Source: Melioribacteraceae bacterium (lineage in GTDB: Bacteria > Bacteroidota > Ignavibacteria > Ignavibacteriales > Melioribacteraceae). Taken from it: a DNA stretch of 64,000 bases. The translations under genes were made by a program, and so were the position numbers. The notes under the pieces were generated by a model, which saw only the letters and a list, made by a program, of their open reading frames with translations, ran no database searches and was not told the origin of the DNA. This document shows positions 1 through 18,156 of this stretch, in pieces (the first letter of the stretch is position 1; each line of letters opens with the position of its first letter). The stretch lies in assembly GCA_026983955.1 (NCBI GenBank), contig JALSTB010000013.1:17720-81719 (forward strand), given 5' to 3'.

Positions 1-369
1 TAATTTAAGAGCTTCGGAATATTTACCGTTCTTATATCCGGCTATCATTAAAAGAAAACCTATAACTGATAATGCAATGGGGAAGTGTATTACTTTGTTG
101 TGAACATGTTCAAACAAAGTGTCTATGGATATTTCACCCGTTTCCTCCGCCTCTGTCAAAATTTCACTTTCAAGATGTTCTTCAGCAGCTTTTTTGTTTT
201 TATAATTTCCCACAGGTATTCCGTTTATTGCTATTGTGTCATTGCCTACTATGGTTAAAGTATCAGGCTTTTTTGTTCCCTTTTTTTCATGATCACCGTG
301 AGCATAAATTGAGAATGTAAGGAGTAAAACAAATACTGCGGTGTAAACTATAGATTTATAATCATTCAT
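1..369 (-). CDS. DUF2231-like integral membrane protein, N-terminal part only (gene runs off the left edge)
   Basis: Not in the ORF track because there is no stop in the window. My reverse-strand translation from the ATG at 369..367 gives MNDYKSIVYTAVFVLLLTFSIYAHGDHEKKG...TLFEHVHNKVIHFPIALSVIGFLLMIAG, open for 123 codons to position 1. The H-x4-HFPIAL motif resembles DUF2231. The gene starts 3 nt downstream of the preceding gene's stop. Confidence 0.6.
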   Translation of the reverse strand, partial: MNDYKSIVYTAVFVLLLTFSIYAHGDHEKKGTKKPDTLTIVGNDTIAINGIPVGNYKNKKAAEEHLESEILTEAEETGEISIDTLFEHVHNKVIHFPIALSVIGFLLMIAGYKNGKYSEALKL

Positions 370-372
370 AAA

Positions 373-1194
373 TTATATCTCCTTATTTAAACCAATAGAA
401 AATATATAATCAGAAGTTGAAGAATTTAATCCTATTGATAAAATTGTGTTCAATAATAATCCTTGATTTATTAAATAATTATATCCGAACCCCAATTGTT
501 TGGGAGAAGATGTTCCTTGAATAATTGTTGAGTAGGAATCATATCCGATATAAAACGAGTGTTTTTTATTATCCAATATATAAGCGGCTCCGGCGGAAAA
601 TGTGAGGGGGTTCGATATTTCCGTCCCCTCAATTTTACCTAAAAACAAATAACCTAATTGTGCGTAAAACATAAAACCCGACAAATATTTTTTTGCCCCT
701 AATGCAATTTGATAATCATATTCTCCGGTACCAATTCCTAATTTATCGGAAGCGGTAGGCAGCTTTATATAACCGTCCAGTGAAAAAGAAGGAAGTATAT
801 TTTTTTCTTTTATTAATTCGTAACTGGCATTAATGTAAAAATCCCCGATTCCAAAAGCCGGTGAATCCGATGTTCTTCCTTCGCTATCGGACATATGAGG
901 GAAGCCGTTAAACCAGTGGCGCGAGTCTCTTCCCATATGATTATTGGGGATAAAGGTATTTTCAATTTGAGTAAATGTATTTGAAGAGGTAACAACCAAT
1001 GGAAAATTAAAATTCAAATAAACGGGTCCCGATTGATACGTAATGCCGTTGTATAAAAAGAAAGAATTGTGCGACGATCCGTCATCGTATTTGCTGCCTA
1101 CCGTTTGCAGTGAAGAATTAAAATACCATTTCCCTTGTGCAAGAGCGTTATAACGTAACAATAATATTGTCAATAACAACATGATGGTTTTCAT
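373..1194 (-). CDS. Secreted putative outer-membrane beta-barrel protein (family uncertain)
   Basis: 273-aa ORF with signal peptide MKTIMLLLTILLLRYNALAQ. It shows alternating hydrophobic/polar strand patterns with aromatic residues (GYDSYS, GFGYNY, FSIGLN). It has a His/Met-containing loop, HMGRDSRHWFNGFPHMSD. It lies 14 nt downstream of the Met-rich gene. Confidence 0.6.
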   Translation of the reverse strand: MKTIMLLLTILLLRYNALAQGKWYFNSSLQTVGSKYDDGSSHNSFFLYNGITYQSGPVYLNFNFPLVVTSSNTFTQIENTFIPNNHMGRDSRHWFNGFPHMSDSEGRTSDSPAFGIGDFYINASYELIKEKNILPSFSLDGYIKLPTASDKLGIGTGEYDYQIALGAKKYLSGFMFYAQLGYLFLGKIEGTEISNPLTFSAGAAYILDNKKHSFYIGYDSYSTIIQGTSSPKQLGFGYNYLINQGLLLNTILSIGLNSSTSDYIFSIGLNKEI

Positions 1195-1208
1195 GATTTT
1201 GTCCTTGA

Positions 1209-1718
1209 TTATTTATTCAGTTCTTTTTTCCTTTTTTCAAGTTTGTTCAGCATGTTATCATAATTCTTCATCATGTGTTTCATATTTTCCATCATATCAT
1301 TCATGTTTTTCATCATGTCTTTGTCTTGCATCATCTCCTTGTTTTGCATCATTTCCTTCATATGTTCCAGCATTTGTTTCATATTTTCCGACATCATATT
1401 CATATTTCCCATCATGCCAGCCATACCTTGAGAGTGTTGCATACCTTTCATCATGCCTTTATTCATCATTTGTTGTTGCTTACCCTTCATCATATTTTTA
1501 TCCATTCCTTGCATCATGTTTTGCATGCGTGTATGCATTTGATTCATATGTTCCATCATTTTTTCCATATTCATCATATTTTGCTGCATCATGTGTTGCA
1601 TATTTTTCTGCATGTTTTGATGCATGTGATTATTTTGGGCAAATAAGTTAGTTGTGCCGGCAAACAGCAAGAAAACCATACTTGCCGTTAAAACGAGTTT
1701 ATTAATTGCTTTTTTCAT
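1209..1718 (-). CDS. Secreted hyper-methionine-rich protein, putative periplasmic Cu(I)/Ag(I) binder
   Basis: 169 aa with signal peptide MKKAINKLVLTASMVFLLFAGTTNLFAQ. I count about 45 Met and about 8 His in about 141 mature residues, and no Cys. An AAGGAG RBS sits 7 nt upstream of the ATG. It is co-directional with the cus genes. Confidence 0.75.
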   Translation of the reverse strand: MKKAINKLVLTASMVFLLFAGTTNLFAQNNHMHQNMQKNMQHMMQQNMMNMEKMMEHMNQMHTRMQNMMQGMDKNMMKGKQQQMMNKGMMKGMQHSQGMAGMMGNMNMMSENMKQMLEHMKEMMQNKEMMQDKDMMKNMNDMMENMKHMMKNYDNMLNKLEKRKKELNK

Positions 1719-1756
1719 GGTAGTTCTCCTTATATTGTTGTGTTTTTGTTTTACAG

Positions 1757-2305
1757 CTATTTAACTTTATAGCCGTTTTCTTTTAATTTATTTATTGCAT
1801 CTTTAATAGAAACTTCTTTAAGATTCATACCACAGACCGGACATTCACCTGCTTCATCGGAAATTACATTCCAATCCATTTGATCTTGAAAAACTTTCCC
1901 ATCGCCGTTTTCATCAATTGCCTCGACATCAATTACACCTTTCCTAACAATAAAGTTTTTTTTGGCGGCGGCAATTTGTTCTTTATGTGCTTTAGCTTCT
2001 TTCAGGTTCATCATCTGTCCGTTTTTCATCAATCCGCGGTCTTTAACGTTTATGGATACCTCAGCCATTTTCATTCCGCATTCCTGGCAATTACTTTCTT
2101 TGTCGGAGATTTGATTTTTGTGCATTGGACATTGATATACTTTGCCATCTTTGTTTTTGTCGTATTGCATGATTTTTTTAGAGCTTATCTCACCTGATTT
2201 TATATCGGTATTATGTTTGTGATTATGTTCTTGTCCCAATGATTGACTTGTAGCAATTGACATCATCAGTATTGCAAACGATATTAGTTTAATTATCTTT
2301 TTCAT
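1757..2305 (-). CDS. Secreted protein with two heavy-metal-binding (CxxCGM-type, HMBD-like) modules
   Basis: 182 aa with a signal peptide and a His-rich mature N-terminus, QEHNHKHN. Module 1 is DKNKDGKVYQCPMHKNQISDKESNCQECGMKM. Module 2 is DENGDGKVFQDQMDWNVISDEAGECPVCGMNL. The C-terminal ~65 aa are paralogous to the CusB C-terminus. An AAGGAG RBS is present. Confidence 0.8.
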   Translation of the reverse strand: MKKIIKLISFAILMMSIATSQSLGQEHNHKHNTDIKSGEISSKKIMQYDKNKDGKVYQCPMHKNQISDKESNCQECGMKMAEVSINVKDRGLMKNGQMMNLKEAKAHKEQIAAAKKNFIVRKGVIDVEAIDENGDGKVFQDQMDWNVISDEAGECPVCGMNLKEVSIKDAINKLKENGYKVK

Positions 2306-2320
2306 GTTAACTCCTTGGTT

Positions 2321-2656
2321 TTATTTGATTACATTAATTTCACCGGTTTTGATTCTAACCGATTTTTCTATATTTGATACGAAAATCCAGCCGTCGCCGC
2401 TTTTACCTGTTCTTCCGTATTCGGCAATAACATTAACCAGCTCATCGGATTTTTCATCTTCACAAACCAGTTCAATTTTTACCACGGCAGAATATTTCTG
2501 AACATACTTAATTGAAAAGCTGAAAGCGTCTTCATCTGCCCATTCCGATAGGGCGTTGGCATCGAGAAGAGTCATTCCGGTAACCCCGGCTTCTTCCAAT
2601 TTTTGAATAACCAATTCAGCCCGGTCATGCCTGATGTATGCTTTGATTTCTTTCAT
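2321..2656 (-). CDS. PII (GlnB)-like signal-transduction-fold protein associated with metal efflux
   Basis: 111 aa. It aligns by eye to GlnB: MKEIKAYIR, GVTGMT, VKIELV, TGKSGDGWIFVSNIEKSVRIKTGE. The T-loop region is acidic and lacks the GlnB Tyr51 context. Confidence 0.85.
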   Translation of the reverse strand: MKEIKAYIRHDRAELVIQKLEEAGVTGMTLLDANALSEWADEDAFSFSIKYVQKYSAVVKIELVCEDEKSDELVNVIAEYGRTGKSGDGWIFVSNIEKSVRIKTGEINVIK

Positions 2657-2690
2657 GTTTACCTCTTTGATTAATGAACATCATATTCTA

Positions 2691-2792
2691 TTATTTGCAA
2701 CAACTTTTACCATTATTGGCTTTAACAACCTTTCTGTACATTAGCAGTCCGATTAACCCTGCCAATATTACAATGATAATTATCTCCGTCAT
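2691..2792 (-). CDS. Unannotated 33-aa single-TM peptide with C-terminal Cys-Cys (FeoB-associated Cys-rich membrane protein-like)
   Basis: My own translation is MTEIIIIVILAGLIGLLMYRKVVKANNGKSCCK. Its ATG overlaps the cusA TGA as ATGA (2789..2792). It falls below the ORF-track size cutoff. Confidence 0.4.
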   Translation of the reverse strand: MTEIIIIVILAGLIGLLMYRKVVKANNGKSCCK

Positions 2793-5700
2793 TTTTCCGT
2801 TTCTTTATTTGTTTGATTGTTTTCATTTAAATTAAATTCAGGTATTAACTTTTTTAATTCCCTTTTTTTAATTATATAGAATATTGCGGGGAAAAGAGTT
2901 AATTCCATTAACATGCTCGTAATAATTCCACCAACCATCGGGGCAGCAATGCGCTTCATAACATCGGAACCGATACCGGTGCCAATAACGATAGGGAACA
3001 GACCGAGCATAGTTGTCATTACGGTCATCATTTTCGGACGTATACGTTTTACGGCACCTTCGAATATTGCTTCTCTTAAATCCGATACTGATTTCAGAAG
3101 ACCGTTCTTTTTAAATTTATCGTACGCAATGTCCAGGTACAGTAGCATTACAACTCCGGTCTCGGCACTAACACCCAGCAATGCAATAATTCCAACCCAT
3201 ACTGCAACACTGATATTAAAATCTGCCGCATATAAATACCATACGGCGCCAACCATTGAAAAGGGAAGGGCTAAAAGGATTATTCCGGTTTTAATCCATG
3301 ATTTGGTATTGATGTAAAGAAGCAAAATTACAATTAACAAAGTAATGGGAATTACCATTGCCAAGCGTTTGCCAGAACGTTCCATGTATTCGTATTGACC
3401 GCTCCAAATAAGAGAGTATCCCGGGGGCAATTCGATTTTCTCGGCTATAATTTTTTTTGCGTTTTCTACATACGTACCAACATCGATGTCTTTAAGATCA
3501 ATATATACCCAAGCATTCGGACGTGCGTTTTCGGATTTGATTGCAGGTGGACCTTTTTTGATTTCCAAATCGGCCAATTCTGCAAGCGGGACGTATCCGC
3601 CGTTCTTAACCGGTACTCGTACACGTTTCAGTTCTTCTATATTTTCCCTGTAATCCCGCTGATACCGGAGATTAACCGGATAGCGTTCCAATCCTTCAAC
3701 TGTTTTGGTGATATTCATTCCACCAATGGCGGACATAATTACATCTTGTACATCGTCTATTGTTAAACCGTAGCGCGCAATTGCATCACGTTTAATGTTA
3801 AAGTCGATATAATTTCCTCCGGCTGAACGTTCGGCATAAGCAGAGCGTGTACCGGGAATGGTTTTGGCAACCTGTTCGATTTCCTTTCCGATTTTTTGCA
3901 ACACGTTTATATCCGGACCGGCAATTTTAATACCCACCGGTGTTTTAATTCCCGTTGCCAACATATCGATTCTGGTTTTAATAGGCATTGTCCAGGCGTT
4001 TGTCAATCCGGGAAATTGAATAGCCGAGTTCAATTCTTCAACCAAGCTTTCCGGTGTAACGCCGGGCCGCCATTGGTCACGCGGTTTTAGTTGTATGGTT
4101 GTTTCAATCATTGAGAGAGGCGCCGGATCCGTAGCGGTTTCCGCCCGTCCAATTTTTCCGAAAACGGATTCAACTTCAGGGAAAGTTTTAATTATTCTGT
4201 CCGTTTGTTGCAAAATTTCCTTTGCTTTTGTGATTGAGATGCCGGGCAGAGTAGTTGGCATGTAAAGCAAATCACCTTCATACAAAGGAGGCATGAATTC
4301 GGAGCCAAGTTTTGCATACGGGAAGTATGTAATAACCATTATAATGAGAGCTCCAATTAATACCGCCCATCGTTTTTTCATCACAAAATCCACAACAGGA
4401 TGGTATATTTTGGTGAGGAATTTTGTAATCGGGTTATTTTCTTCCGAACGCATTTTACCTCTTACGAAAAATCCGAGCAATACTGGAACGATAGTAACCG
4501 CTAATATTGCTGCAGCTGCCATGGAATAAGTTTTAGTATACGCCAAAGGTTTGAATAACCTGCCTTCTTGTTGTTCCAAAGTAAAAACGGGCAAAAATGA
4601 AACCGTTATTACCAAAAGGGAATAGAATATAGATGGCCCGACTTCTTTTGCGGATTCAAGAATAATTGCCCAGTGCGGTCTTTGTTTTTCTTTGGGAAGT
4701 TCTTGCTCGCGTGCCAAGTGTGTGTGTGCATTTTCCACCATCACAATTGCGGCATCTACCATAGCGCCAATTGCTATTGCAATTCCGCCAAGCGACATAA
4801 TATTGGCGTTTATACCTTGCATTTCCATTATTACGTATGATGCCAATACGGCTGTTGGCAAGGTAAAGATTGCAACCAACGAGCTTCTAACATGTAAGAG
4901 AAAAATCATTATTATTATTGCTACAATTATGCTTTCTTCGGTAAGTGTGTTTTTCAAGTTTGCAATCGCTGCATTAATTAAATCGGATCTGTCGTATGAA
5001 GTAATGATTTCCACATCTTCAGGTAAAGAAGTTTTCAATTCTTCCAATCTTTGTTTAACGCGGTTAATTACTTCCAAAGCATTATCACCGTAACGCATTA
5101 CAATGATTCCCCCTACGGTTTCACCCTCGCCGTTCCAGTCGGCAAGTCCGCGCCGCAATTCGGGACCTATATCGATATTCGCAACATTTTCGAGGTAAAC
5201 GGGTGTACCGGTTTCCGGGTTTACGCCGATAACAATCTTTTTCAAATCTTCCACACTTTTAATATAACCGAGACCTCTGACCATAAATTCCATTTCACCG
5301 ATTTCCAAAAGTCTTCCGCCTACATCATTGTTGCTGCGTTTGATAGCCATTTTAACTTTACTTAAAGGAATACCGAACGATGCCAATTTGTTAGGATCGA
5401 TATTAACTTGATACTGCTTTACGAAGCCGCCGATACTTGCAACTTCCGAAACGCCGGGTAAAGCCGATAATTCATAACGTAAGAACCAATCTTGAATTGA
5501 ACGTAATTCTTGCAAATCCCTTTTATCGGATTTGAGTACGTATTGATAAACCCAACCGAGACCGGTTGCATCGGGTCCGAGCGTGGGGGATACGCCTTCC
5601 GGTAAATCTTTCTGCAAAGAACTTAAATATTCCAAAACACGGCTGCGTGCCCAATAAATATCCGTCCCGTCTTCAAAAATTATATACACCATCGAAAATC

Positions 5701-5995
5701 CGAAGAACGAATAGCCACGTACCACCTTAGCATAAGGAACGGAAAGCATTTTAGTTGTCATCGGGTAGGTTACTTGATCTTCTACAATTTGTGGACCTTG
5801 TCCGGGATATTCGGTAAATATAATAACTTGCACATCACTTAAATCCGGTTGGGCATCAACGGCAATATTATTTATTGCCCAAACGCCGGCTGCTATAAGT
5901 GCAATTGTTAAAATGATAACCATGAATTTATTATTAATCGACCATTCAATTAATTTGGCAATGAGACCATCTTTTTGATTTCCTGCTGGTACCAT
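2789..5995 (-). CDS. cusA: Heavy-metal efflux RND pump, CusA type (Cu(I)/Ag(I))
   Basis: 1068 aa with 12-TM RND architecture. It has the CusA/CzcA-family N-terminus LIAKLIEWSINNKF. The contexts of the three CusA relay methionines are conserved as I recall them from E. coli CusA: DLLYMPTT, SMIETTIQL, IDMLATG. Confidence 0.95.
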   Translation of the reverse strand: MVPAGNQKDGLIAKLIEWSINNKFMVIILTIALIAAGVWAINNIAVDAQPDLSDVQVIIFTEYPGQGPQIVEDQVTYPMTTKMLSVPYAKVVRGYSFFGFSMVYIIFEDGTDIYWARSRVLEYLSSLQKDLPEGVSPTLGPDATGLGWVYQYVLKSDKRDLQELRSIQDWFLRYELSALPGVSEVASIGGFVKQYQVNIDPNKLASFGIPLSKVKMAIKRSNNDVGGRLLEIGEMEFMVRGLGYIKSVEDLKKIVIGVNPETGTPVYLENVANIDIGPELRRGLADWNGEGETVGGIIVMRYGDNALEVINRVKQRLEELKTSLPEDVEIITSYDRSDLINAAIANLKNTLTEESIIVAIIIMIFLLHVRSSLVAIFTLPTAVLASYVIMEMQGINANIMSLGGIAIAIGAMVDAAIVMVENAHTHLAREQELPKEKQRPHWAIILESAKEVGPSIFYSLLVITVSFLPVFTLEQQEGRLFKPLAYTKTYSMAAAAILAVTIVPVLLGFFVRGKMRSEENNPITKFLTKIYHPVVDFVMKKRWAVLIGALIIMVITYFPYAKLGSEFMPPLYEGDLLYMPTTLPGISITKAKEILQQTDRIIKTFPEVESVFGKIGRAETATDPAPLSMIETTIQLKPRDQWRPGVTPESLVEELNSAIQFPGLTNAWTMPIKTRIDMLATGIKTPVGIKIAGPDINVLQKIGKEIEQVAKTIPGTRSAYAERSAGGNYIDFNIKRDAIARYGLTIDDVQDVIMSAIGGMNITKTVEGLERYPVNLRYQRDYRENIEELKRVRVPVKNGGYVPLAELADLEIKKGPPAIKSENARPNAWVYIDLKDIDVGTYVENAKKIIAEKIELPPGYSLIWSGQYEYMERSGKRLAMVIPITLLIVILLLYINTKSWIKTGIILLALPFSMVGAVWYLYAADFNISVAVWVGIIALLGVSAETGVVMLLYLDIAYDKFKKNGLLKSVSDLREAIFEGAVKRIRPKMMTVMTTMLGLFPIVIGTGIGSDVMKRIAAPMVGGIITSMLMELTLFPAIFYIIKKRELKKLIPEFNLNENNQTNKETEK

Positions 5996-6074
5996 ATTTA
6001 TCTCCTAAATTTCTTGATGGTTTTTGCTTCGTATCGCATCAGAATTATTACGGCGAAACAAAAACATTCTTACT

Positions 6075-7703
6075 TTATTTATATTGATATCCGTGTTCTT
6101 TCAAATTTTTCTTTGCTTCTTCAACGGTTACTTCCTGTAAATACATTCCACATACAGGGCATCTTCCTTCCGAATCCGATATGACATTCCAATCCATCAA
6201 ATCTTGATAAACCTTTCCGTCTCCGTTTTTATCAATTGCTTCCAAATCGATAACCCCGGTCCTTACAATATTTTCTCCGCCCATTTCATCCTCACCGGAG
6301 TTTTTATTTTTTTCCATATTCATATTTTTCATTGCACTTTTTGCCGTATCGTTTTCATTCGTTCTAGCCGAAGAGAATAATTTTACCGCAGCCCTTAAAC
6401 TGCTTTCGGAATCTATCATGAATTGACCTGAAACAACGATAATATCCTTTTCTTTAAGTCCATCCAGAACTTGATAATAACCTTTGGAATAATGACCTAA
6501 AGTAACTTCAACAGGTTTGAATTTGCCATCGCCCAACGATAGAATTACAATTGCCGATTTACCGCTTCTTATGACAGCCGTTTCGGGCACAACCGGTGTG
6601 GGTTCGAATTCATTACCGCTAATTTCAACATTGGCAAACATCGAAGGTTTAAGCTCTTCATTTTTATTATCCAAATCGATACGTACTTTAACGGTTCTGG
6701 TAACGGGATCTACAGTCGGGTAGATAAACGAAACTTTACCTGTATAGACTTTACCGGGTTTGTAGCTGAAATAAATTTTCACTTTGTTACCCAATTGTAT
6801 TTTATCCAGTTCACTTTCATAAATATCCGCTTTCAACCAAAGTTTGGTTAAATTGGCAACCTTCATGATTTCGTTTCCTGCTTTTATTCGATCTCCTTGT
6901 AAAACATTTTTGGAGATAACCGTTCCGTTGAACGGTGCATAAAGAGTAATATACTTTTTAACTTTTTTAGTTTTAATTAAGTTATCTATTTCCGGTTTGC
7001 TCACGTCGTATAATTCCAGTTTACGTTTTGCGTTTTCGAGGACAGATGCACCTTTGTTGTACATTAATGCAGTTAACAATTCTTGCTGTGCAGCGACCAA
7101 TTCGGGTGAATAAATGTCAACTAATTTTTGACCTTTAACTACTTTTTGTCCGACATAATTAACATAAAGTTTTTCAATCCACCCGTTAATTTTAGTGGTA
7201 ACGGCATATTCTTTGGTTTCATCGGTATCCAGATAACCGTTTGTGTAAACAACGGGTGAAAGTTTTTTCTTTTCAACCATAGTCATTTTCACGTTCATAC
7301 TTTGAAGAACGGAACCATCGACAGTAACAACTCCCGATGCGCCACCTTCATCTTCGTAAACCGGAACCAAATCCATCCCCATTTTCGACTTACCCGGCGC
7401 ATCATAAATTTCGTTCGGATTCATCGGTGCCCGCCAGTATAAAATTTTTCTTTCACCTTGTTTTGTAGAAGCGGATTTATTTTGTGTACTTTTAATGGGT
7501 GTTAATTTCATTCCGCAAATAGGGCAATTTCCCGGTTCTTTCTCGATTATATCTGGGTGCATACCGCATGAATACAACGTTTCTTCATCTTCGTGCATGT
7601 GGGTTTCGGTTGAGTTGTTGGGAATTATTAAATACAACGCTCCAGCGCCAATTAAAATCCCGATAATAAATATCACTGTGTACGTTAATATTTTATTCTT
7701 CAT
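6075..7703 (-). CDS. cusB: RND periplasmic adaptor, CusB type, with extra N- and C-terminal metal-binding modules
   Basis: 542 aa. The N-terminal HMBD is YSCGMHPDIIEKEPGNCPICGMKL. The CusB three-Met site context is PMNPNEIYDAPGKSKMGMDLVPVY. It has an MFP lipoyl/beta-barrel core, a Met-rich linker (AMKNMNMEKN) and a C-terminal DKNGDGKVYQDLMDWNVISDSEGRCPVCGMYL module. Confidence 0.9.
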   Translation of the reverse strand: MKNKILTYTVIFIIGILIGAGALYLIIPNNSTETHMHEDEETLYSCGMHPDIIEKEPGNCPICGMKLTPIKSTQNKSASTKQGERKILYWRAPMNPNEIYDAPGKSKMGMDLVPVYEDEGGASGVVTVDGSVLQSMNVKMTMVEKKKLSPVVYTNGYLDTDETKEYAVTTKINGWIEKLYVNYVGQKVVKGQKLVDIYSPELVAAQQELLTALMYNKGASVLENAKRKLELYDVSKPEIDNLIKTKKVKKYITLYAPFNGTVISKNVLQGDRIKAGNEIMKVANLTKLWLKADIYESELDKIQLGNKVKIYFSYKPGKVYTGKVSFIYPTVDPVTRTVKVRIDLDNKNEELKPSMFANVEISGNEFEPTPVVPETAVIRSGKSAIVILSLGDGKFKPVEVTLGHYSKGYYQVLDGLKEKDIIVVSGQFMIDSESSLRAAVKLFSSARTNENDTAKSAMKNMNMEKNKNSGEDEMGGENIVRTGVIDLEAIDKNGDGKVYQDLMDWNVISDSEGRCPVCGMYLQEVTVEEAKKNLKEHGYQYK

Positions 7704-9003
7704 CGTTTGTCTCCGTTCTGTTTTTCTCGATGTTAATTAATTCCGTACCGGCAAGGTATTCTATGGTAAATAAGTTTTTGTAATAATCAGTTCTTATTTT
7801 GGCAAGCTCGGTTTTGATGTTAAGAATATCGTTTTCCGCTTTAATTACATTGGCAAAATCGATTTTACCTACTTGGTAATCGGCTATTGCTGCTTTGTAA
7901 GCCTGTTGTGCTTGTGGCAAAAGCTGGTCTGTGATTAATTCTTCACGATTGAACATTTCCAATAATTTCGAATTCACCGTACCGAAAGTTTGTTGCAACT
8001 TTTGAACGGCAAGATTATATTGTTCATTGTATAGCGAGCCCAAATGTACCGCCCGGTTTACTTGTTCGGTTTTTTTGCCTCCATAATTGATAGGCAGCGA
8101 TATTCCAACCAATACCGAAAAGAAATCGACAAAATCCGTTGATGTAACCGAATTGTAATCCCTTTGGGAATATTGAAGTCCAAGTTTGAAATTGGGATAG
8201 AAAGAATATTCCGCTTGTTCCTTCATCAGCTGTGCTTTTTTTACCGATAATTTCAAACTTTGCAACTGAGGCCGGTTTTCCGTTGCAATTCTCACCAGTG
8301 ACTCTGTTGATGTTTCTAAAAATTTTATCGGTTGAATCTTTCCGGTTTGAATTTCTCCGGTTCCGTTTCTTAATAGATAAGCGTTGAGTTTTGCAAGTAA
8401 TGCTCTTTCTTCCGATTTCAATGATTCGATTTTATCTTTAACACGCGTGATTTGAACTTCCACTTGTACAAGGTTTTGCAGACTGGCACTACCCACATCG
8501 TATTTTTGTCTTACAACATCGGATATTTGCTTTAACAAGCCAATACTTTCATTTGCGAATCTGATATTTTCCCTTACGAACTGAAGTGAAAAGTAGAGTC
8601 CGGCAACTTCTTTACGAATTTTATTTTTTAAATCTATAATGTTTTGCCGGATAATTGAGGTATCAACCGCTTTAACACCGGCAGCGGAACTTAATGCGCC
8701 CGGAAACGGAATGGCTTGCGTTAGCCCGATGACTTTTCCCGTCATAGGTTCTTGTGTAAAAGAGAAAGAATTCACAGGTAAATTTGCCAAACCCAAAGTT
8801 AATACCGGATCGGGTAAATTTGTACCGATTTCAATCTGAGATTTGGCCACTCTGTATTTTGCTTCTAGCATTTTAATTTCCGGACTTACCGAAATAGCTT
8901 TGTTAATTAACCATTCCAAATCTTGCTTGTCTGGTGTTTTGTTTTGCGCATTAATAACCGACAATGCCGCTATTAATAGCACAATCAGAATTTTTGAGTT
9001 CAT
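7693..9003 (-). CDS. TolC-family outer-membrane efflux factor of the Cus-type pump
   Basis: 436 aa with signal peptide MNSKILIVLLIAALSVINAQ. It shows a two-fold repeated coiled-coil/barrel pattern typical of OMF proteins. Its stop overlaps the cusB start by 11 nt. Confidence 0.9.
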   Translation of the reverse strand: MNSKILIVLLIAALSVINAQNKTPDKQDLEWLINKAISVSPEIKMLEAKYRVAKSQIEIGTNLPDPVLTLGLANLPVNSFSFTQEPMTGKVIGLTQAIPFPGALSSAAGVKAVDTSIIRQNIIDLKNKIRKEVAGLYFSLQFVRENIRFANESIGLLKQISDVVRQKYDVGSASLQNLVQVEVQITRVKDKIESLKSEERALLAKLNAYLLRNGTGEIQTGKIQPIKFLETSTESLVRIATENRPQLQSLKLSVKKAQLMKEQAEYSFYPNFKLGLQYSQRDYNSVTSTDFVDFFSVLVGISLPINYGGKKTEQVNRAVHLGSLYNEQYNLAVQKLQQTFGTVNSKLLEMFNREELITDQLLPQAQQAYKAAIADYQVGKIDFANVIKAENDILNIKTELAKIRTDYYKNLFTIEYLAGTELINIEKNRTETNDEE

Positions 9004-9103
9004 TTTTCCCTCAAAGATTTATTGTTCTAAAAATATTTTGTTAAAGCTGCGTATTAAAGCTGCTGGTTGTAACCAGGTTTAACAGGGAATTAAACGGGAT
9101 TGA

Positions 9104-9559
9104 TTAAATCAAAAAGGAATGTACGGCAAGGTATATTGGTGTTTTATATTCATTAAACAAGCGACCGGAATTTTCAGTAGAAATAAATTCTTTTCTTTCG
9201 CTTGTCAAATTAAAAGTAAAAACCACAACAAAACTTTGTTCGGAATTATATTTTGGAGTGATGACAAAGTTATTCGTGTCATTTAAATTTTTAACAATCA
9301 TGCAATTGTCATGAGTTAATTCCATGTCGCATGATTGATTTCCTAAGGATGAAAAATCCATGCCGGAATCGCAGCAATTATGTTCACCTTCGTGCATTTC
9401 CATTGAACATGTATGTGTTTCGTTGTATTCCATTGTGCAAGTTCCCGTGCACCGGTTTTGCGGAATGGCAAATAATAAAGGTGAAGCGGCGAAGTATAGC
9501 AGTAATAAAACCGCTACGGCTTTTTTAAGTTTTTCCGGTATGTAATAATTTAATTTCAT
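9104..9559 (-). CDS. Secreted Cys/His/Met-rich protein, first gene of the cus locus
   Basis: I chose the internal Met (MKLNYYIPEKLKKAVAVLLLLYFAASPLLFA) as the start, because the ORF track extends to 9607. After the hydrophobic segment come 7 Cys and 4 His in about 55 residues: CTGTCTMEYNETHTCSMEMHEGEHNCCDSGMDFSSLGNQSCDMELTHDNC. Confidence 0.6.
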   Translation of the reverse strand: MKLNYYIPEKLKKAVAVLLLLYFAASPLLFAIPQNRCTGTCTMEYNETHTCSMEMHEGEHNCCDSGMDFSSLGNQSCDMELTHDNCMIVKNLNDTNNFVITPKYNSEQSFVVVFTFNLTSERKEFISTENSGRLFNEYKTPIYLAVHSFLI

Positions 9560-9686
9560 CAATAGTCGAATTATTGTTAATTTCAAACGCAATATAGTAT
9601 GAGGCAATAAAACAAGCGTTATACAATTTTGGAAAAATGTTACAGAATTTTAATGTGAATTCTTTTACCAAAGTAAAAAAAATAAA

Positions 9687-10631
9687 TCAAATAAGCGAAT
9701 TTATTTTTAGAATTATTATCCCTACGCTTATTGTGATTATGGAAAACAGTGTTGAAACAACAATAATATCGCCTGCCAATTTTGAATTGCCGCCCATGGC
9801 TTCGGCCATTATAAAAGATGCAATAGCGGTTGGACTTGCAAACAGTATAAACAATATTACCATTTCGTTCGAATCGAAATGAAGAAGTATTCCGGTAAAT
9901 ACTGCAATTACAGGGAAAAGAACAATTTTGTTAAACATTACTATGAATGAAATTTTAGAAGCTCCTTTTAATCTTTTTAAGTTTAATGACGCACCTATAC
10001 TTATTAAAGCAAGCGGAAGTGCAATTTTAGCAAGGTAAGTTAATGTTGTTGTAACAACAGAACCAAGTTGTATGTGAAATATTGAAAATGGAGCTGCAAA
10101 AAAAGCAGCCAAAATTAATGGATTCTTTCCAATTTCTTTTACCGTTTGAAGATAATCATATTCTTTTTCATTTTTGAACGGAACGGTTAATGCTATAACG
10201 GCAAGAACATTGTATAGCGGCATTACAAAAGCTAAAACAAGCGAAGCTTTTCCTAATTGTTGTTCTCCAATCAGATTTGCAATTAATGCCAAACCGATAA
10301 TAGCAAAATTACTACGGAAACTTCCTTGAATGAAAACTCCTTTATCCGCCGGCGTTTTGGTAAATATGGAAGATAAACCCCAACTTATTGCTGCAATTGT
10401 AAGAACTAAAATTAAAGATGTTAAAATTAGCTTGCCGTCAAATGCCTTTGTAATTGTTATGGTTGCTATCTTTAAAAAGATTAATGCAGGTAAAGATACC
10501 GTGAAAACAAACTTTGAGCTCTGGGAGACAAACAGGCCGTTTACCAATTTAACTTGTTTTAAAAAATTGCCAATTATTATCAGCAAAAAAATAGGAGAAA
10601 CGATATTAATGGTAAATAGAATTATTGACAT
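9687..10631 (-). CDS. AEC (auxin efflux carrier) family permease
   Basis: 314 aa, about 10 TM segments and a two-halves architecture. The N-terminus MSIILFTINIVSPIFLLIIIGNFLK is typical of AEC/YfdV-like proteins. Confidence 0.8.
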   Translation of the reverse strand: MSIILFTINIVSPIFLLIIIGNFLKQVKLVNGLFVSQSSKFVFTVSLPALIFLKIATITITKAFDGKLILTSLILVLTIAAISWGLSSIFTKTPADKGVFIQGSFRSNFAIIGLALIANLIGEQQLGKASLVLAFVMPLYNVLAVIALTVPFKNEKEYDYLQTVKEIGKNPLILAAFFAAPFSIFHIQLGSVVTTTLTYLAKIALPLALISIGASLNLKRLKGASKISFIVMFNKIVLFPVIAVFTGILLHFDSNEMVILFILFASPTAIASFIMAEAMGGNSKLAGDIIVVSTLFSIITISVGIIILKINSLI

Positions 10632-10848
10632 GACGGTTCAAATCTTTTAACGCAATTTAAAAGTGTTGTTTTGTAAAAATAGCAATTAATTAGGACAGCA
10701 GGGAAGGGAAATCCATATTAATTAATTAAATTACAATGACGATTTAATAAAAAGTTCTGACCTCTTCCGATAAATTAAAGATGCTTTAATATTATTTAAT
10801 ATAATATTTAACATAAAACTGTAATTTGTTTTTATTGCCGGAGTAAAA

Positions 10849-11919
10849 ATGAAATTCAAAAGTCAATTATTTGACTTTGTTTTTAGAGAATGGCTGCTCA
10901 TTATTTCTGCTTTTAGCTTTTTACTAATATCAATTTATGTTAATCAATTACCTTCTTACTCAATACAAGAAATAGAAATACTTTTAATCCTTTTTGCTCT
11001 TTTTGTGACAATTAAAGGGTTCGAGAATAGCGGATTGGTACTGAAAATATCAAAAATTGTTGAGGGAAGTAACTTTGTCGGGTTAAAATTAATTTTATTG
11101 ACTTTTGTTTTGTCCATGTTAGTTACAAATGATGTTGCGTTAATTTTTATAGTACCCTTAACGTTAAAAATTAATTTTAACAAAAAAGATATGATGATTA
11201 TTTTGGAAGCATTGGCAGCAAATGCCGGTTCTGCGCTCACTCCCATCGGAAATCCTCAAAATTTATTTATTTACTGGAATTATAACCTAAAACCGGGACA
11301 GTTTATATCTTCAATATGGTTATTCTCATTTGTTTTTATATTCATTTTATGTTTAACCACTTTTTTGTTGAAAATTAATTCGGATATTTCCGGGCAAACA
11401 TCGTCAAACGGAATAAATAAACTGTCTGTTAGTTATGCCATCTTGTTCGTGTTGGTCATATTAATTGTAGTTCATGCAATACCCGTATATGCAATTTCGT
11501 TTGTTTTTTTATTTGTGTTGTTGTTTGACCGAATAAGTTTAAAAATCGATTATTTATTATTACTGACATTCTTCTTCTTTTTCGGTTTCGCTGAAAATCT
11601 TAAATTTGTGTTAGCCTCGGAAATAAAACATTCGGGACATGTATTTATATTATCGGCTCTTTTAAGTCAAGTAATCAGCAATGTTCCGGCAACGCTAATA
11701 TTCGCAAAATTTACTTCTCATTGGAAAGCTTTATTGTGGGGGAGTAATGCCGGGGGATTCGGCAGTTTATTTGGTTCTTTAGCCAATTTAATAGCCTATC
11801 GATTATATGCTGCAAATGTCAATAACGGTAATATCAAAAATTTCACATTAAAATTTATCGGAATTGGTTACATAGCATTTTTTATTGGTGCCGGGTTATA
11901 TTTTTTCTTTATAGTCTGA
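10849..11919 (+). CDS. ArsB/NhaD-superfamily (SLC13/CitMHS-like) anion permease
   Basis: 356 aa polytopic membrane protein. It carries the motif GSALTPIGNPQNLFIY, characteristic of ArsB/NhaD-type permeases. A GGAG RBS is present. Confidence 0.7.
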   Translation: MKFKSQLFDFVFREWLLIISAFSFLLISIYVNQLPSYSIQEIEILLILFALFVTIKGFENSGLVLKISKIVEGSNFVGLKLILLTFVLSMLVTNDVALIFIVPLTLKINFNKKDMMIILEALAANAGSALTPIGNPQNLFIYWNYNLKPGQFISSIWLFSFVFIFILCLTTFLLKINSDISGQTSSNGINKLSVSYAILFVLVILIVVHAIPVYAISFVFLFVLLFDRISLKIDYLLLLTFFFFFGFAENLKFVLASEIKHSGHVFILSALLSQVISNVPATLIFAKFTSHWKALLWGSNAGGFGSLFGSLANLIAYRLYAANVNNGNIKNFTLKFIGIGYIAFFIGAGLYFFFIV

Positions 11920-12084
11920 AAGTATAGGATTTATATTTATTTTTTTAAAGTAAAGTTATAGTTGTTTTCTTTTTATAACATAACTGAAGTGTTGTCAATT
12001 CTATATTTGTATGAAATATAATCCCACTGAAATTTGTTAAATTTATATATTGATTTAATTTATTGATATAAAGGAATATTTTAA

Positions 12085-12879
12085 TTGAAGATTCTTTTAC
12101 TAAGCATATTATTATTCGTTGCGGCGCTTTTAGCCAGTTTTTTCGGTCAAGGAGGCGGTGTATTATATACACCAATTCAAATATTATTGGGAGTCCCGTT
12201 TCAAACGGCGGCTGCTACAAGTTTATTTTTAATAATGGTCATAGCATTTTCCTCTACACTTGTATATCGTAAAGCGCATACGGTTGATTGGCAAATGGCT
12301 GCCATTATGGAAATACCTACTACCATAGGTGCTTTTATCGGAGGTTTTATTTCAGGTTATTTCCCGGAAAGAATACTAGTATTTATTTTATCCGGTCTTT
12401 TATTAACCGGAGCTTTTGCATTGAACCGCTATCATTCCCCGGCAAGTATTGAAAAAAAAGAAAGGAATGGTTTTTGGATTTGGACCCGTGAAATGAACGG
12501 TATAAAATACCATATTAACATTTTATTATTGATTCCCGTAACTCTTTTGGTAGGTTTCTTAACAAGCATAGTGGGAATAGGCGGTGGACCAATTAAAGTG
12601 CCAATGATGGTTTTGCTTTTTGGCGTACCAATGGATATTGCAATCGGTTCAAGCGCTTTTATGGTTGGTCTTACTGCTACAGCCGGATTTATCGGACATG
12701 CAGCGATTGGCCATTGGGACTGGAAAATTTCGCTAATTCTTGCAATACCTGTTTTTATCGGTGGGCAATTCGGAAGCCATTTTTCCACTCATCTTAAAAA
12801 AGAAAAATTACAGAAGTGGTTCAGCTGGTTTTTGATTCTTATAGCCGTTCTGATATTTATTCAGAAGGTAAATATTTAA
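12085..12879 (+). CDS. TSUP (TauE/SafE) family sulfite/organosulfonate-type exporter
   Basis: 264 aa with a TTG start. It has two 4-TM repeats, each with a Gly-rich motif (FFGQGGGVLYTP; IVGIGGGPIKVP). Confidence 0.8.
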   Translation: MKILLLSILLFVAALLASFFGQGGGVLYTPIQILLGVPFQTAAATSLFLIMVIAFSSTLVYRKAHTVDWQMAAIMEIPTTIGAFIGGFISGYFPERILVFILSGLLLTGAFALNRYHSPASIEKKERNGFWIWTREMNGIKYHINILLLIPVTLLVGFLTSIVGIGGGPIKVPMMVLLFGVPMDIAIGSSAFMVGLTATAGFIGHAAIGHWDWKISLILAIPVFIGGQFGSHFSTHLKKEKLQKWFSWFLILIAVLIFIQKVNI

Positions 12880-13095
12880 TAAATTAATATTAAGAAATTA
12901 TAAAATCGAATCATTATATTATGCTTTTACCCACAAGGCAATATTTGCAACAATTCCGTCTACCGGCATATAAAGTTCACTAAAACTGGGATTATTGTAT
13001 GGCGGTTTAACAATTTCATCATATTTGCTTTGCCGTTCGTCTGGTTTATTTTCAATAATCAAAATAATAACTTATTATAAATATTAAATCAACAA

Positions 13096-15318
13096 TTAAA
13101 TTTTCGCTCTTTTCAATCTTAAAGAATTGCTGATTACCGAAACCGAACTCATGGACATTGCACCTGCGCCAATCATCGGGTTTAGAAAACCTAGTGCCGC
13201 AAACGGAATACCAATCGAATTGTAAACAAACGCCCAAAACAAATTTTGTTTGATTGTTTTAATGGTTGCATGCGATAATTTTATAGCGGAAACCACCGCA
13301 GTCAGTTCACCTTTTATTAATGTAATATCCGATGATTCTATGGCAACATCGGTACCGGTACCAATGGCAATACCAAGATCGGCAGCAGCGAGAGCGGGAG
13401 AATCGTTAATGCCGTCGCCAACCATTGCAACAATTTCACCTTTACTTTGTAAATCTTTTATTATTTTTGATTTCCCGCCCGGTAATACTCCGGCATAATA
13501 ATTATCGAGTCCAACTTTTTCAGCTATGCTTTTGGCGGTTATTTCGTTGTCGCCGGTAACCATATAAACTTTAATACCCATTTGTTTTAATTTTTTAATG
13601 GCTCCGGCAGATGAGGATTTTACAGGATCGGCTATTCCGATAATACCGGCGAGCTTTCCATTGACCGCTACAAAAACAACGGATTTCCCTTCGGAGCTTA
13701 TTGCATTGTAAATCTCTTTTTTATCAATTGTTCGGATATTGTTATTTTCCAGGAAACTTCTGTTACCAATAAATAACTCGTAACCGTTCACTGTAGCGCC
13801 GATTCCGTGACCTTCAAAATTTTTAAAGTGGGAAATTTTTCCGGGTTCAATTTTTCTATCTTTACAATATCTTGTAATCGCTTCCGCAAGAGGATGTTCG
13901 GATCTGTTTTCTGCGGTAAATAATAAACTTAAAAAAGTATTACGGTCGATTCCGAATGTATGAATATCGGTAACCACAGGATTTCCTTCTGTTATAGTAC
14001 CGGTTTTGTCAAACACAACAGCGGTTATCTTGTGAGCTTTTTCGAGGCTTTCGCCGTTCTTAATTAAAATTCCGTTTTGTGCACCCAATCCGGTTCCAAC
14101 CATAATTGCCGTTGGGGTTGCAAGCCCCATTGCACAAGGACAAGCGATAATCATAACAGCGACAAAATTAATCAATGCCGTGTTGAACGATGATGTTTCC
14201 GGAATAATCAACCATCCGAAAAAAGTAAGCGCCGCAATACCGATCACCACGGGGATAAAAACCGCCGCTACTTTATCCGCTATTTTTTGAATTGGTGCCT
14301 TGCTTGCCTGGGCTTCTTCAACCAAGCGGATAATTTGTCCTAAAACGGAATTATCACCCAGTTCCGAAACTTCATATACAAAGGTACCGCTTTTGTTAAG
14401 TGTACCGCCGATAACCGCCGAACCTTTACTTTTTTCTACAGGTAAACTTTCACCTGTTAACATTGATTCGTCAACCGAAGAGTAGCCGTCTAAAATTTTT
14501 CCATCTGACGGAATTTTTTCTCCGGGTTTAACAATTACTTTATCCCCGGTTTTTAAATCATTTAAGTCAATCTTTTGTTCAACTCCACCAACTATCACTG
14601 TTGCTTGTTTCGGTTTCAGTTCCAGCAATTTTTTTATTGCAGAATTTGTTTTGCTTTTGGCTCTACTTTCCAGAACTTTGCCGAGAAGAATTAGTGAAAT
14701 GATTACAGTTGCCGTATCGAAATAAACATGAGAAACATTTTGTTCATTTAACCAAGAAGGGAAAAGGGTAATAACTGTACTGTAAATAAATGCAGCACCG
14801 GTTCCTATTGCTACAAGCGAATCCATGTTTACGGAAAAGTGTTTTATATTTGTCCAAAACGATGAATAAAATCGTTTACCTGAAATAAATATTACCGGCG
14901 TGGTTAGAATCAATAAAATTTTGTTTGTGTAATCATCTGAAAAAGTCCAAAATTCCCGGAAGAATTCAAAACCTCTTAGCATGCTTATAAGAAAGACGGG
15001 CAAAGTAAAGATTAATGCAAAGCGAAAGCTCTTTTTTAATTCGGAGTAATGCTCGTCTTGAAGGGATATTTCTTCGACGTTATCCGCTGCACTGCTTGTG
15101 CCGTCAAGCACTTGTTCGGTTCGTAATTTATAACCGTATTTTTCAACGGCTTTTGCCGCAACGGATAAATCGATATCCGATTTACTCTCTATTGTTACTT
15201 TCTCGGTTGCCAAATTTACGGAAACATTCTCTATGCCTTCGATTTTTCTAAGGGATTTTTCCACTCTTGCGGCACAGCTTGCACAAGTCATTCCTTCAAC
15301 CGGTAAATTGTATTTCAT
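13096..15318 (-). CDS. copA: Copper-translocating P1B-1-type ATPase
   Basis: 740 aa with an N-terminal HMA domain, [15 protein letters not shown]. It has the TM6 CPC motif ([13 protein letters not shown]), [18 protein letters not shown], the TM7 YN motif (FVYNSIGIP) and the TM8 MSxSS-like motif (AMSMSSVSV). Confidence 0.95.
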
Positions 15319-15341
15319 TTTATCAACGTGGTATTTTTTAA

Positions 15342-15542
15342 TTAATTAGCTACTTGGTAACCGGCTTCGGTAATAGCGTTGATTATTTGCTCTTCGGAAA
15401 TTTTATTTTCATCCCATTCAACTACAGCAGAGCCGATTTCAACTTCGTGTGAATAAACACCAAGTTCTTCCAGTTCCACTTCAACTGCTTTCACACAATG
15501 ATGGCAAGTCATTCCGTTAATCTTGAATTCTTTTTTTACCAT
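15342..15542 (-). CDS. copZ: CopZ-type copper chaperone (HMA domain)
   Basis: 66 aa with the motif [14 protein letters not shown]. It lies immediately upstream of copA on the same strand. Confidence 0.9.
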
Positions 15543-15758
15543 GATTTATCTCCTTTTTTTTACATGAGAAAAATAACACCGTATATTTTATGAAGCGTTA
15601 TATTATTTTAAGAAAATGTTATAATATTTTAACATTCGTATCACCTTCACCTTCGCTTGGCTGATAGGGCAATTTTTTTTGGCGTGCATTTAAATCCGAT
15701 TATTATTAATTTGGAATCCAACCTAAAGTAAACCGGTCAATTTATCTTATTTTGCTTA

Positions 15759-16637: not shown

Positions 16638-16813
16638 TTAACAAATTTTCAAGGGCGCTAAACATTAGGTAAAAAATACCGATTAATATACGATTATAGG
16701 ACATATTGTATCATTTTAGATTTATAAATCGGATAACAAATCGTTTTTTGCAATGAAAAAGCGGGTATTTCTGTGGCACTTTTATTGTTTTACCAAAATA
16801 GATAGTTTATAAA

Positions 16814-18142: not shown

Positions 18143-18156
18143 TCAAAATATTTGCT

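Follow-up and report, generated by a model that had tools for sequence, protein, structure and literature searches.

The window analyzed here, a 64,000-nucleotide (64-kb) stretch of contig JALSTB010000013.1 from a Melioribacteraceae bacterium, carries at positions 1 to 9559 ten minus-strand genes centered on a CusCBA-type metal efflux pump. The outer-membrane factor (OMF), the CusB-type adaptor and the CusA-type permease are accompanied by a leader gene and by genes for a 33-aa peptide, a PII-like protein, a secreted protein with two HMBD modules (the twin-HMBD protein), a secreted Met-rich protein, an outer-membrane barrel and a DUF2231 membrane protein (Table 1). The map was compiled from the open reading frames (ORFs) listed for positions 1 to 13000 and from the minus-strand sequence of positions 1 to 420. 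From the leader to the DUF2231 gene, the junctions computed from the coordinates were 100, -11, 79, -4, 34, 15, 38, 14 and 3 nt, negative values being overlaps. The original prediction had given the same ten genes and junction lengths, all of which were reproduced exactly, and its family calls for the OMF, CusB, CusA, PII-like, HMBD, barrel and DUF2231 proteins came out the same in Pfam and NCBIfam. Its minus-strand run starting at position 9559 stood as far as the genes were concerned. As a boundary, this start was given up, because the Mem_trans/AEC-family gene upstream shares the strand. With moderate confidence, we read the locus as an Ignavibacteriota-specific, modular elaboration of CusCBA-type Cu(I)/Ag(I) efflux, including mechanistic steps that we infer from the sequence. 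Rather than a new kind of machine, it is a known system in a lineage-specific form. The named nearest relatives were uncultured Melioribacteraceae and metagenome-assembled genomes (MAGs) of Ignavibacteriales; a leader gene product with 100% identity was found on contigs of assembly GCA_054021415.1 (locus L001) and in several metagenomes.

Table 1. Genes and sequence elements of the cus-like locus and of the copZ-copA region in the 64-kb window.
Feature	Positions	Strand	Description
Leader gene	9104-9559	-	151 aa; adjoins OMF gene on its upstream side
Outer-membrane factor (TolC/CusC-like)	7693-9003	-	436 aa; PF02321 OEP 151 bits
CusB-type adaptor	6075-7703	-	542 aa; HlyD_D23 248 bits, HMBD 91 bits, NF007303 CusB 210 bits
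CusA-type HME-RND permease	2789-5995	-	1068 aa; TIGR00914 1189 bits
33-aa single-pass peptide MTEIIIIVILAGLIGLLMYRKVVKANNGKSCCK	2691-2792	-	Cys-Cys tail
PII-like protein	2321-2656	-	111 aa; PF00543 55 bits
Secreted twin-HMBD protein	1757-2305	-	182 aa; PF19335 x2, 68 bits
Secreted Met-rich protein	1209-1718	-	169 aa; composition and family alignment
Outer-membrane barrel	373-1194	-	273 aa; PF13557 (Phenol_MetA_deg) 39 bits
DUF2231 membrane protein, truncated	1-369	-	N-terminal 123 aa; identified via full-length copy in L001
Mem_trans/AEC-family transporter	9687-10631	-	next gene upstream of leader
Direct-repeat element, putative operator	9618-9651	-	58 nt upstream of leader ATG
Direct-repeat element, second copy	15597-15630	-	54 nt upstream of copZ-like gene
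copZ-like gene	15342-15542	-	66 aa, HMA-type MTCHHC motif
P1B copper ATPase	13096-15318	-	ATPase domains

The functional Cu(I)/Ag(I) site of E. coli CusA is formed by three methionines, M573, M623 and M672. All three are kept in the CusA of the window, as M579, M629 and M678, in a phmmer alignment to E. coli CusA (3k07, 1212 bits); the score against the CusA/CzcA model TIGR00914 was 1188.6 bits (cutoff 701). Also kept, in E. coli numbering, were E625, D405, E412, E939, M391, M403, M410 and M486, while the positions of M501 and M271 are occupied by Leu. Here D405 and E939 were read from the alignment, and the RPK motif with K984 was seen in the ORF sequence. The motif AIGAMVDAAIVMVEN of transmembrane helix 4 (TM4), which we take to be the Cu/Ag-type signature of Nies's HME classification, is conserved as well. 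The adaptor aligns to E. coli CusB (3ne5_B) from residue 73 and keeps the N-terminal Met site (M94, M108 and M110; APM...KMGMDL versus PM...FMDMDL in E. coli). The OMF has a signal peptide and lacks the lipobox Cys; its gene overlaps the start of CusB by 11 nt. By homology, the three proteins make up a proton-driven tripartite pump with a Cu(I)/Ag(I) three-methionine site, and the Cus-type assignment made originally is borne out by the conservation of the Met triad, D405, E939, the TM4 motif and the CusB Met site.

Compared with E. coli CusCFBA, the locus has in common the OMF, CusB and CusA, the three-Met site, the proton-relay residues and the N-terminal Met site of CusB. On the other hand, it has no CusF, two HMBD modules are added to its CusB (one of the Cys type, one C-terminal), its OMF is no lipoprotein, there are six to eight additional genes, and no cusRS is adjacent to it in the genome. 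Judged by sequence, the core belongs to the CusCBA family, and the definition of a complete CusCFBA system fails on CusF. The original prediction had already remarked on this absence, and we agree with it: tblastn found no CusF-like sequence in the window (only noise at E≤10) or in 118 related loci (E≤0.01), with an E. coli CusF sequence as query and with limited sensitivity. Nor was there a Pfam CusF match among the proteins of the locus.

What the locus does have is a set of HMBD modules, some in a free protein and some as parts of the adaptor. Against PF19335 (threshold 23.6), the twin-HMBD protein scored 68 bits and CusB 91 bits, the latter over three stretches. The twin-HMBD protein consists of two modules of ~65 aa, each with a DxNxDG loop and a rubredoxin-knuckle metal site. 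The repeat opens with an EF-hand-like loop, I-D-K-N-K-D-G-K-V, and continues with Q-C-P-M-H...C-x-x-C-G-M, the first part of which is Q-D-M-M-D-W in module 2. EF-hand proteins appeared only as insignificant PDB matches for the loop. The predicted metal sites, M61/C76/M78 and M143/C158/M160, were invariant in both modules in the alignment of 26 sequences (alignment A1). We found 645 homologs of this protein, mostly in Ignavibacteria, Melioribacteraceae and Chlorobiota-labeled MAGs. In the plasmid collection, all HMBD tandems formed the N-terminus of a copper ATPase or an adaptor. We also observed that the predicted mature N-terminus reads Q-E-H-N-H-x-H in many homologs (aa 24-30, window 2214-2235), and that the His at position 3 is reminiscent of the ATCUN Cu(II) motif.

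In CusB, the first HMBD module (aa 44-69) is of a Cys type, with C46, M48, C60, C63 and M65. The second is the canonical Met-type CusB site described above, and the third lies at the C-terminus (aa ~478-542; M503, C515, C518 and M520). This last module and module 2 of the twin-HMBD protein share 69% identity, and we regard the two as paralogs on the strength of their sequences.

Both the twin-HMBD modules and those of CusB are homologous to the N-terminal metal-binding domain (MBD) of Legionella pneumophila CopA (8ovl, 3rfu), with the CPMH...CxxCGM motif and the Met-Cys-Met site in common. The twin-HMBD protein differs from the Legionella domain in that it is predicted to be periplasmic, is duplicated and free-standing, begins with the DxNxDG loop and has lost the first Cys in module 2. 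The CopA domain (LpCopA MBD) is reported to fold as a three-stranded sheet bearing a rubredoxin knuckle, to resemble the N-terminal domain of SilB, and to bind Ag+ trigonally through M44, C59 and M61 (PMC11970713). The C-terminal domain of SilB is CusF-like, and a sensor function has been suggested for its N-MBD (PMC11970713). The SilCBA system of Cupriavidus metallidurans is a close parallel in layout: metal-binding domains sit at both ends of the adaptor, there is a free relative of the C-terminal one, and the rubredoxin-knuckle fold of the SilB N-MBD is common to HMBD (PMC11970713; CusB matched 5a4g). Unlike in SilB and SilF, the domain that is both fused and free at our locus is an HMBD and not a CusF-type OB fold.

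This combination of a free periplasmic domain with a paralogous copy on CusB, as known from SilB and CusF, is the best argument for HMBD in the role of CusF. By this analogy, the twin-HMBD protein probably takes over that role. The original prediction had named both the twin-HMBD and the Met-rich protein as possible replacements; the former candidate is strengthened by the retained Met-Cys-Met site and the paralogous CusB module, while the latter lost its standing as a free agent, being tied to the barrel gene in 46 of 46 loci (see below). Mechanistically, the twin-HMBD protein would capture periplasmic Cu(I)/Ag(I) on its trigonal Met-Cys-Met sites and hand the metal to the paralogous HMBD modules at both ends of CusB, which in turn would feed or activate CusA.

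Linkage of the accessory genes to the pump was followed across relatives. A genome scan with the twin-HMBD alignment produced 75 loci, all in Ignavibacteriota-type genomes, and tblastn with the window proteins revealed a modular order: OMF-CusB-CusA-[peptide]-[PII]-HMBD-[Met-rich-barrel-DUF2231-(cytochrome c)]. For counting, we used the 44 loci that had a CusA ortholog of ≥60% identity and ≥1.5 kb of downstream sequence. A stand-alone HMBD gene was present within 2.5 kb of CusA in 40 of them and a CusB with an HMBD tail in 38, counts that are biased towards presence because the loci had been found via the HMBD protein. The PII gene was present in 22 loci, the barrel in 11 and DUF2231 in 10. 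A second, independent scan, of metagenomes and with the barrel as anchor, yielded 31 loci, in which CusA, PII and HMBD were present wherever the contig reached far enough upstream. The linkage persisted down to 65% CusA identity and 25-30% barrel identity. Both scans, the HMBD-anchored and the barrel-anchored one, thus place the accessory genes with Cus pumps, in line with the original expectation that they would be linked to RND pumps rather than scattered.

The HMBD modules may sense metal rather than carry it, since the LpCopA MBD was read as a sensor and no delivery was seen in vitro. In that work, LpMBDcore gave no stimulation of the truncated ATPase, CXXC mutants lost ~70% of the activity, and the authors inferred a sensor role (PMC11970713). 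Applied to our locus, the free modules and those on CusB would be sensors or regulators, metal would release an autoinhibited adaptor or pump, and CusA would take periplasmic Cu(I) directly. The sensor proposals for the LpCopA MBD and the SilB N-MBD fit this alternative, as does the position of the modules on the flexible ends of CusB. A separate secreted two-module protein, whose gene lies beside the pump in 40/44 loci, is, however, hard to reconcile with a tethered autoinhibitor, and the parallel with free CusF and the CusF-like SilB tail favors transfer. We consider the sensor model unlikely, if still worth attention, and prefer metal transfer by the twin-HMBD protein.

Of the 169 residues of the Met-rich protein, 47 are Met; without the signal peptide, the figure is 45 of 142 (32%). 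Distances between its methionines peak at 3, 4 and 7 residues, a spacing that fits helices with a Met face or a Met core. An alignment showed that such proteins form a family with a signal peptide, an N-terminal block ...NMQQMMEHMNQM..., an expandable middle and a C-terminal block ...MMKNYD.ML.... No Pfam or NCBIfam family was matched beyond a spurious coiled-coil-type hit, and on this basis there was no homology to SilE or PcoE; unlike these, the Met-rich protein is paired with a barrel. The pairing was scored as an ORF of 145-215 aa with 17-32% Met that ended within ~50 nt of the barrel start. All 46 informative loci showed it, including those with barrel identity as low as 25%; a 47th locus was left out of the count for having only 48 nt of upstream sequence.

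The barrel scored 39.3 bits against PF13557 (threshold 22). Its AlphaFold2 (AF2) model, built with 24 sequences, reached a predicted local distance difference test (pLDDT) score of 76.8 and has 12 strands, the first of which follows the signal peptide directly. A long loop at aa ~70-112 was poorly predicted and contains a nearly invariant His-Met. The best Foldseek matches were FapF (E 1e-11, template modeling (TM) score ~0.65) and the COG4313 channel 4rl8, with TM scores ranging over ~0.62-0.69. FapF and the COG4313 channel Pput2725 share with our barrel the 12-stranded fold and PF13557. They differ from it in their N-terminal plug or coiled coil, which our barrel lacks, and in the long His/Met loop and the copper context, which they do not share. 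PcoB was not among the top 50 Foldseek matches, and there was no CopB match in Pfam. A PcoB-like fold, which had been considered, was dropped on account of the Foldseek result, and only a functional analogy to PcoB is retained. PcoB itself has a Met-rich N-terminus. The likeness to PcoA/PcoB (CopA/CopB) consists in an outer-membrane barrel together with a Met-rich segment and, in one related locus, a multicopper oxidase nearby; at our locus, a gene of its own encodes the Met-rich part, and the barrel is a PF13557/COG4313 protein rather than a CopB-family member.

A copper context was also seen at the two barrel loci that have no Cus pump. In L116, the neighbors of the Met-rich/barrel pair are a YHS-domain protein and a Tat-exported multicopper oxidase; in L100, the pair has a P-type ATPase plus a MerR regulator on one side and another RND pump on the other. 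The pair thus behaves as a portable copper module. Plasmid-borne relatives of the barrel in Proteobacteria (sphingomonads) had no metal context. Several variants around the pair were also noted. The YHS metal-binding domain of L116 (11337-12434), next to the pair and the oxidase, is fused to a lactate/malate dehydrogenase. At 10242-13124 of L011, the pair is preceded by an insertion of a single-module HMBD protein, a 194-aa ORF without a family and a protein of 525 aa that carries a type IX secretion C-terminal sorting domain, and in L016 a zinc-ribbon/TM/CcmH-like protein (9630-10172) lies between the HMBD and Met-rich genes.

We propose that the Met-rich protein and the 12-stranded barrel may work as an obligate two-gene outer-membrane copper module, in the manner of a split PcoB/CopB: the Met-rich protein would be a helical metal sponge lined with Met that docks to the outer-membrane channel or passes through it. 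The 'second route across the outer membrane' suggested originally is speculative, as the nearest folds are those of a polypeptide exporter (FapF) and a channel for hydrophobic substrates (COG4313) and not of a metal channel. These same matches, to an exporter and an uptake channel, would suit a pair that does not serve efflux at all but exports the Met-rich protein to the surface as a Cu/Ag sponge, in a FapF-like way, or imports copper for cuproenzymes. The low-complexity, M/N/Q/K-rich composition of the Met-rich partner with its expandable middle, the pair beside a multicopper oxidase without Cus, and the neighboring cytochrome c and DUF2231 genes can be read in the same direction. The barrel, however, is without the N-terminal coiled coil and plug of FapF, and the Met spacing fits a folded helical protein and not an unfolded secretion substrate. 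Uptake is argued against by the position of the pair inside an efflux operon that shares a putative operator with copZ-copA (see below). Export or import is, in our judgment, quite improbable, and the proposed outer-membrane copper module remains our preferred reading of the pair.

The 33-aa peptide and the PII-like protein follow CusA. The start of the peptide gene overlaps the CusA stop by 4 nt, and at least 12 distinct lineages have an ORF of 30-33 aa in this position. These ORFs encode a variable hydrophobic helix together with a basic stretch, and their end, ...G-K-S-C-C-K (here ...NGKSCCK), is invariant. Such conservation indicates that the ORF is a real gene. Against PF12669 (FeoB_associated), the peptide scored 21.8 bits (gathering score 27); 10 of 12 orthologs matched at E≤0.1, the best at 1.3e-5, and all were below threshold. 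PF12669 has been described as a small Cys-rich peptide encoded downstream of feoB (PMC8749426). The two kinds of peptide are alike in being single-pass and ~30 aa long, with a C-terminal Cys motif and a gene that comes after a metal transporter gene. Here, on the other hand, the gene follows CusA and not feoB, and the Cys motif is a CC doublet only, without Cx3-5Cx2-3Cx6-8C. The peptide can thus be taken as a borderline relative of a described family. By the positive-inside rule, its Cys-Cys tail is predicted to be cytoplasmic. In L106-L109 (e.g., L107 10838-10930), a Cys-tailed small ORF comes directly after the barrel and not after CusA, so the peptide moves within the operon.

The PII-like protein has the length and core of PII, with a divergent T-loop in the alignment to PII structures. 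Its gene adjoins a CusA-type pump, here as well as in the 22 related loci mentioned above. For PII proteins with genes beside czc pumps, the name PII-NG is in use (Sant'Anna et al. 2009, cited in PMC7726332). At the PII-NG loci by czcABC (e.g., Geobacter GSU2134-2137), a PII-fold gene likewise lies beside an HME-RND pump. In contrast to these, our gene is downstream of a Cus-type and not a Czc-type pump, belongs to Ignavibacteriota and not to Proteobacteria, and is often preceded by the Cys-tailed peptide.

The original prediction had counted six putative metal-handling proteins among the accessory set. This number lumps unlike parts, as the PII-like protein and the tail of the peptide are placed on the cytoplasmic side, where they are more likely to be regulators or partners of CusA. 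A precedent for a small RND partner is AcrZ. Acting on CusA from the cytoplasm, the translationally coupled peptide and a PII-like trimer could gate the pump or deliver metal. A bolder joint proposal is that the Met-rich 'methionine-zipper' and the FapF/COG4313-type barrel form a portable outer-membrane copper device, and that, in addition, the peptide and the PII-like trimer gate the RND pump as GlnK does AmtB. The device would be a surface Cu/Ag sponge or a Met-lined outer-membrane conduit, used with Cus, other RND pumps and multicopper oxidases. We offer this proposal, with both its parts, as a tentative one that probably does not hold in full.

The last gene is cut by the end of the window. 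Its full-length copy in L001 encodes a protein of 208 aa that matched PF09990 with 36 bits (threshold 26.4); the 123-aa fragment in the window alone had no PF09990 match. DUF2231 follows the barrel in many loci. In L001, a class-I cytochrome c gene comes 146 nt after it, and then a gene for a 394-aa protein. No terminator was evident between DUF2231 and the cytochrome c gene in L001, which places the 3' end of the unit beyond the window. DUF2231 and the downstream cytochrome c might supply a periplasmic redox step. The literature found on DUF2231 amounted to a general DUF/cysteine database paper. Two further proteins are encoded past the cytochrome c gene of L016 (12732-14236): a Porin_O_P-like barrel of 402 aa, and one of 95 aa that has a CxxCH heme motif and a weak cytochrome c match. 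The 394-aa gene of L001 probably encodes the same Porin_O_P-like barrel.

The leader protein contains 7 Cys and 5 His. A long charged N-terminal region precedes a 20-residue hydrophobic helix (membrane helix at aa 9-29), and a Cys/His/Met-rich part, predicted to be periplasmic, follows. C37, C41, C51, C63 and C86 are invariant, and a His, a Met-Glu and the C-terminus (...PIYL.VQSFL) are conserved. Five homologs were found by word index, and 40 at E≤0.001 by a profile search of 1.84e9 representatives. No match was obtained in Pfam even at E≤10 (10 members), in NCBIfam, or among PDB sequences at E≤10. The leader gene always lies directly upstream of the OMF gene, and all five database homologs had the same architecture. 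The original description as a Cys/His-rich secreted protein was right about the composition; free secretion is disfavored by the helix, which suggests a membrane anchor. Our guess, and a weakly founded one, is that the membrane-anchored leader would provide the inner membrane with a further, thiol-based metal acceptor. As far as sequence searches go, the leader and the Met-rich protein are two new small families. The PII-NG-like, HMBD, PF13557 barrel and DUF2231 proteins fall by sequence into described families or domains with no established function in this setting. No publication describing the arrangement was found with searches for Ignavibacteria CusA and for COG4313 with copper, judged by title or abstract.

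Upstream of the leader, an alignment of 180 nt from ten leader genes revealed a 34-bp direct repeat, AAAATTCTGTAAC-N8-AAAATTGTATAAC, with the consensus AAAATTnTRTAAC-N8-AAAATTnTRTAAC and a period of 21 bp. The element was conserved in 10 of 10 aligned leader lineages (relatives L005, L007, L009, L011, L015, L017, L019, L023, L051 and L075). It had one other match in the window, with 0.01 expected by chance, and this second copy precedes the copZ-like gene; the element is likewise upstream of copZ-copA in L007 and L009. The copZ-like gene was identified by its MTCHHC motif and by HMA matches of the orthologous 66-aa genes of L007 and L009. The presence of the same element upstream of the leader and of copZ suggests one regulator for both operons. 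The element is thus a candidate copper-regulon operator, and the copZ-like gene and the P1B ATPase probably belong to the same regulon as the cus-like operon.

In every close relative, the Mem_trans/AEC gene (66-92% identity) was likewise the immediate upstream neighbor on the same strand. We rejected it as an operon member: the conserved putative operator sits between it and the leader, and Mem_trans is therefore probably outside the operon. The arrangement suggests that the promoter of the cus-like operon also lies between these two genes, and transcription probably starts just upstream of the leader, co-regulated with copZ-copA. No terminator-like hairpin was detected on the coding strand in any intergenic gap, Rfam at gathering scores returned nothing for window positions 1-16000, and a sigma-70 promoter scan did no better than on shuffled sequences. 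The CusRS-like two-component system of L005 had no homolog in the window at E<1e-3.

Several points weigh against the interpretation of the locus as a modular CusCBA elaboration. Besides the presence bias of the HMBD counts, the sensor precedent of the LpCopA MBD and the missing PcoB and CopB matches of the barrel, the full ten-gene set was seen in a narrow clade only, and the frequencies of the barrel (11/44) and PII (22/44) in the HMBD-anchored loci mean that the parts are separable. The redox idea for DUF2231 rests on a sub-threshold cytochrome b561-type match (E 0.007) and gene adjacency. The AF2 model of the leader (5 sequences) was unusable, with a pLDDT of 39.6 and confidence only in the helix at aa 9-29. 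Finally, we infer transcription, induction, localization, metal binding and protein contacts throughout. That the accessory genes are just conserved neighbors of unrelated function, kept in synteny by descent, would agree with the restriction of the complete set to close relatives, with the equally conserved Mem_trans gene (yet set apart by the putative operator) and with 79-100-nt gaps that could hold internal promoters, but it is highly improbable given that the linkage holds at the low CusA and barrel identities reported above, that the modules reshuffle yet stay in copper contexts, that several junctions overlap or measure ≤15 nt, and that every accessory protein has Cys/Met/His motifs or belongs to a metal-pump-tied family.

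Cus is the textbook model of periplasmic metal efflux, with CusF treated as part of it. Here, a phylum-level lineage manages without CusF, apparently with a different small domain that is both free and adaptor-fused. The locus also bears on the role of PII-like proteins beside metal pumps, a question since 2009, on small membrane peptides as possible partners of metal RND pumps, and on the role of a one-third-methionine protein locked to an outer-membrane barrel. Parts of the system are present in the cultured relatives Melioribacter sp. Ez-97, Rosettibacter primus and Stygiobacter electus, and such strains make experiments possible.

Two further observations concern neighboring genes. In L005 (3243-7604; also L051 3-4307), a single 1453-aa ORF comprises both a full RND permease (ACR_tran, 926 bits, aa 6-1034) and an OEP part (83 bits) whose matches extend to aa 1445, which would be a fusion of inner- and outer-membrane components. 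The ORF is flanked by the CusRS-like two-component system and a CzcB-like adaptor. In the window, a plus-strand cluster at 15759-22079, divergent from copZ, encodes a 292-aa membrane ORF without a family, a 4Fe-4S/FAD oxidoreductase and two multiheme cytochromes c with MtrC/MtrF-like domains; the cluster is also found beside copZ-copA in L007 and L009.

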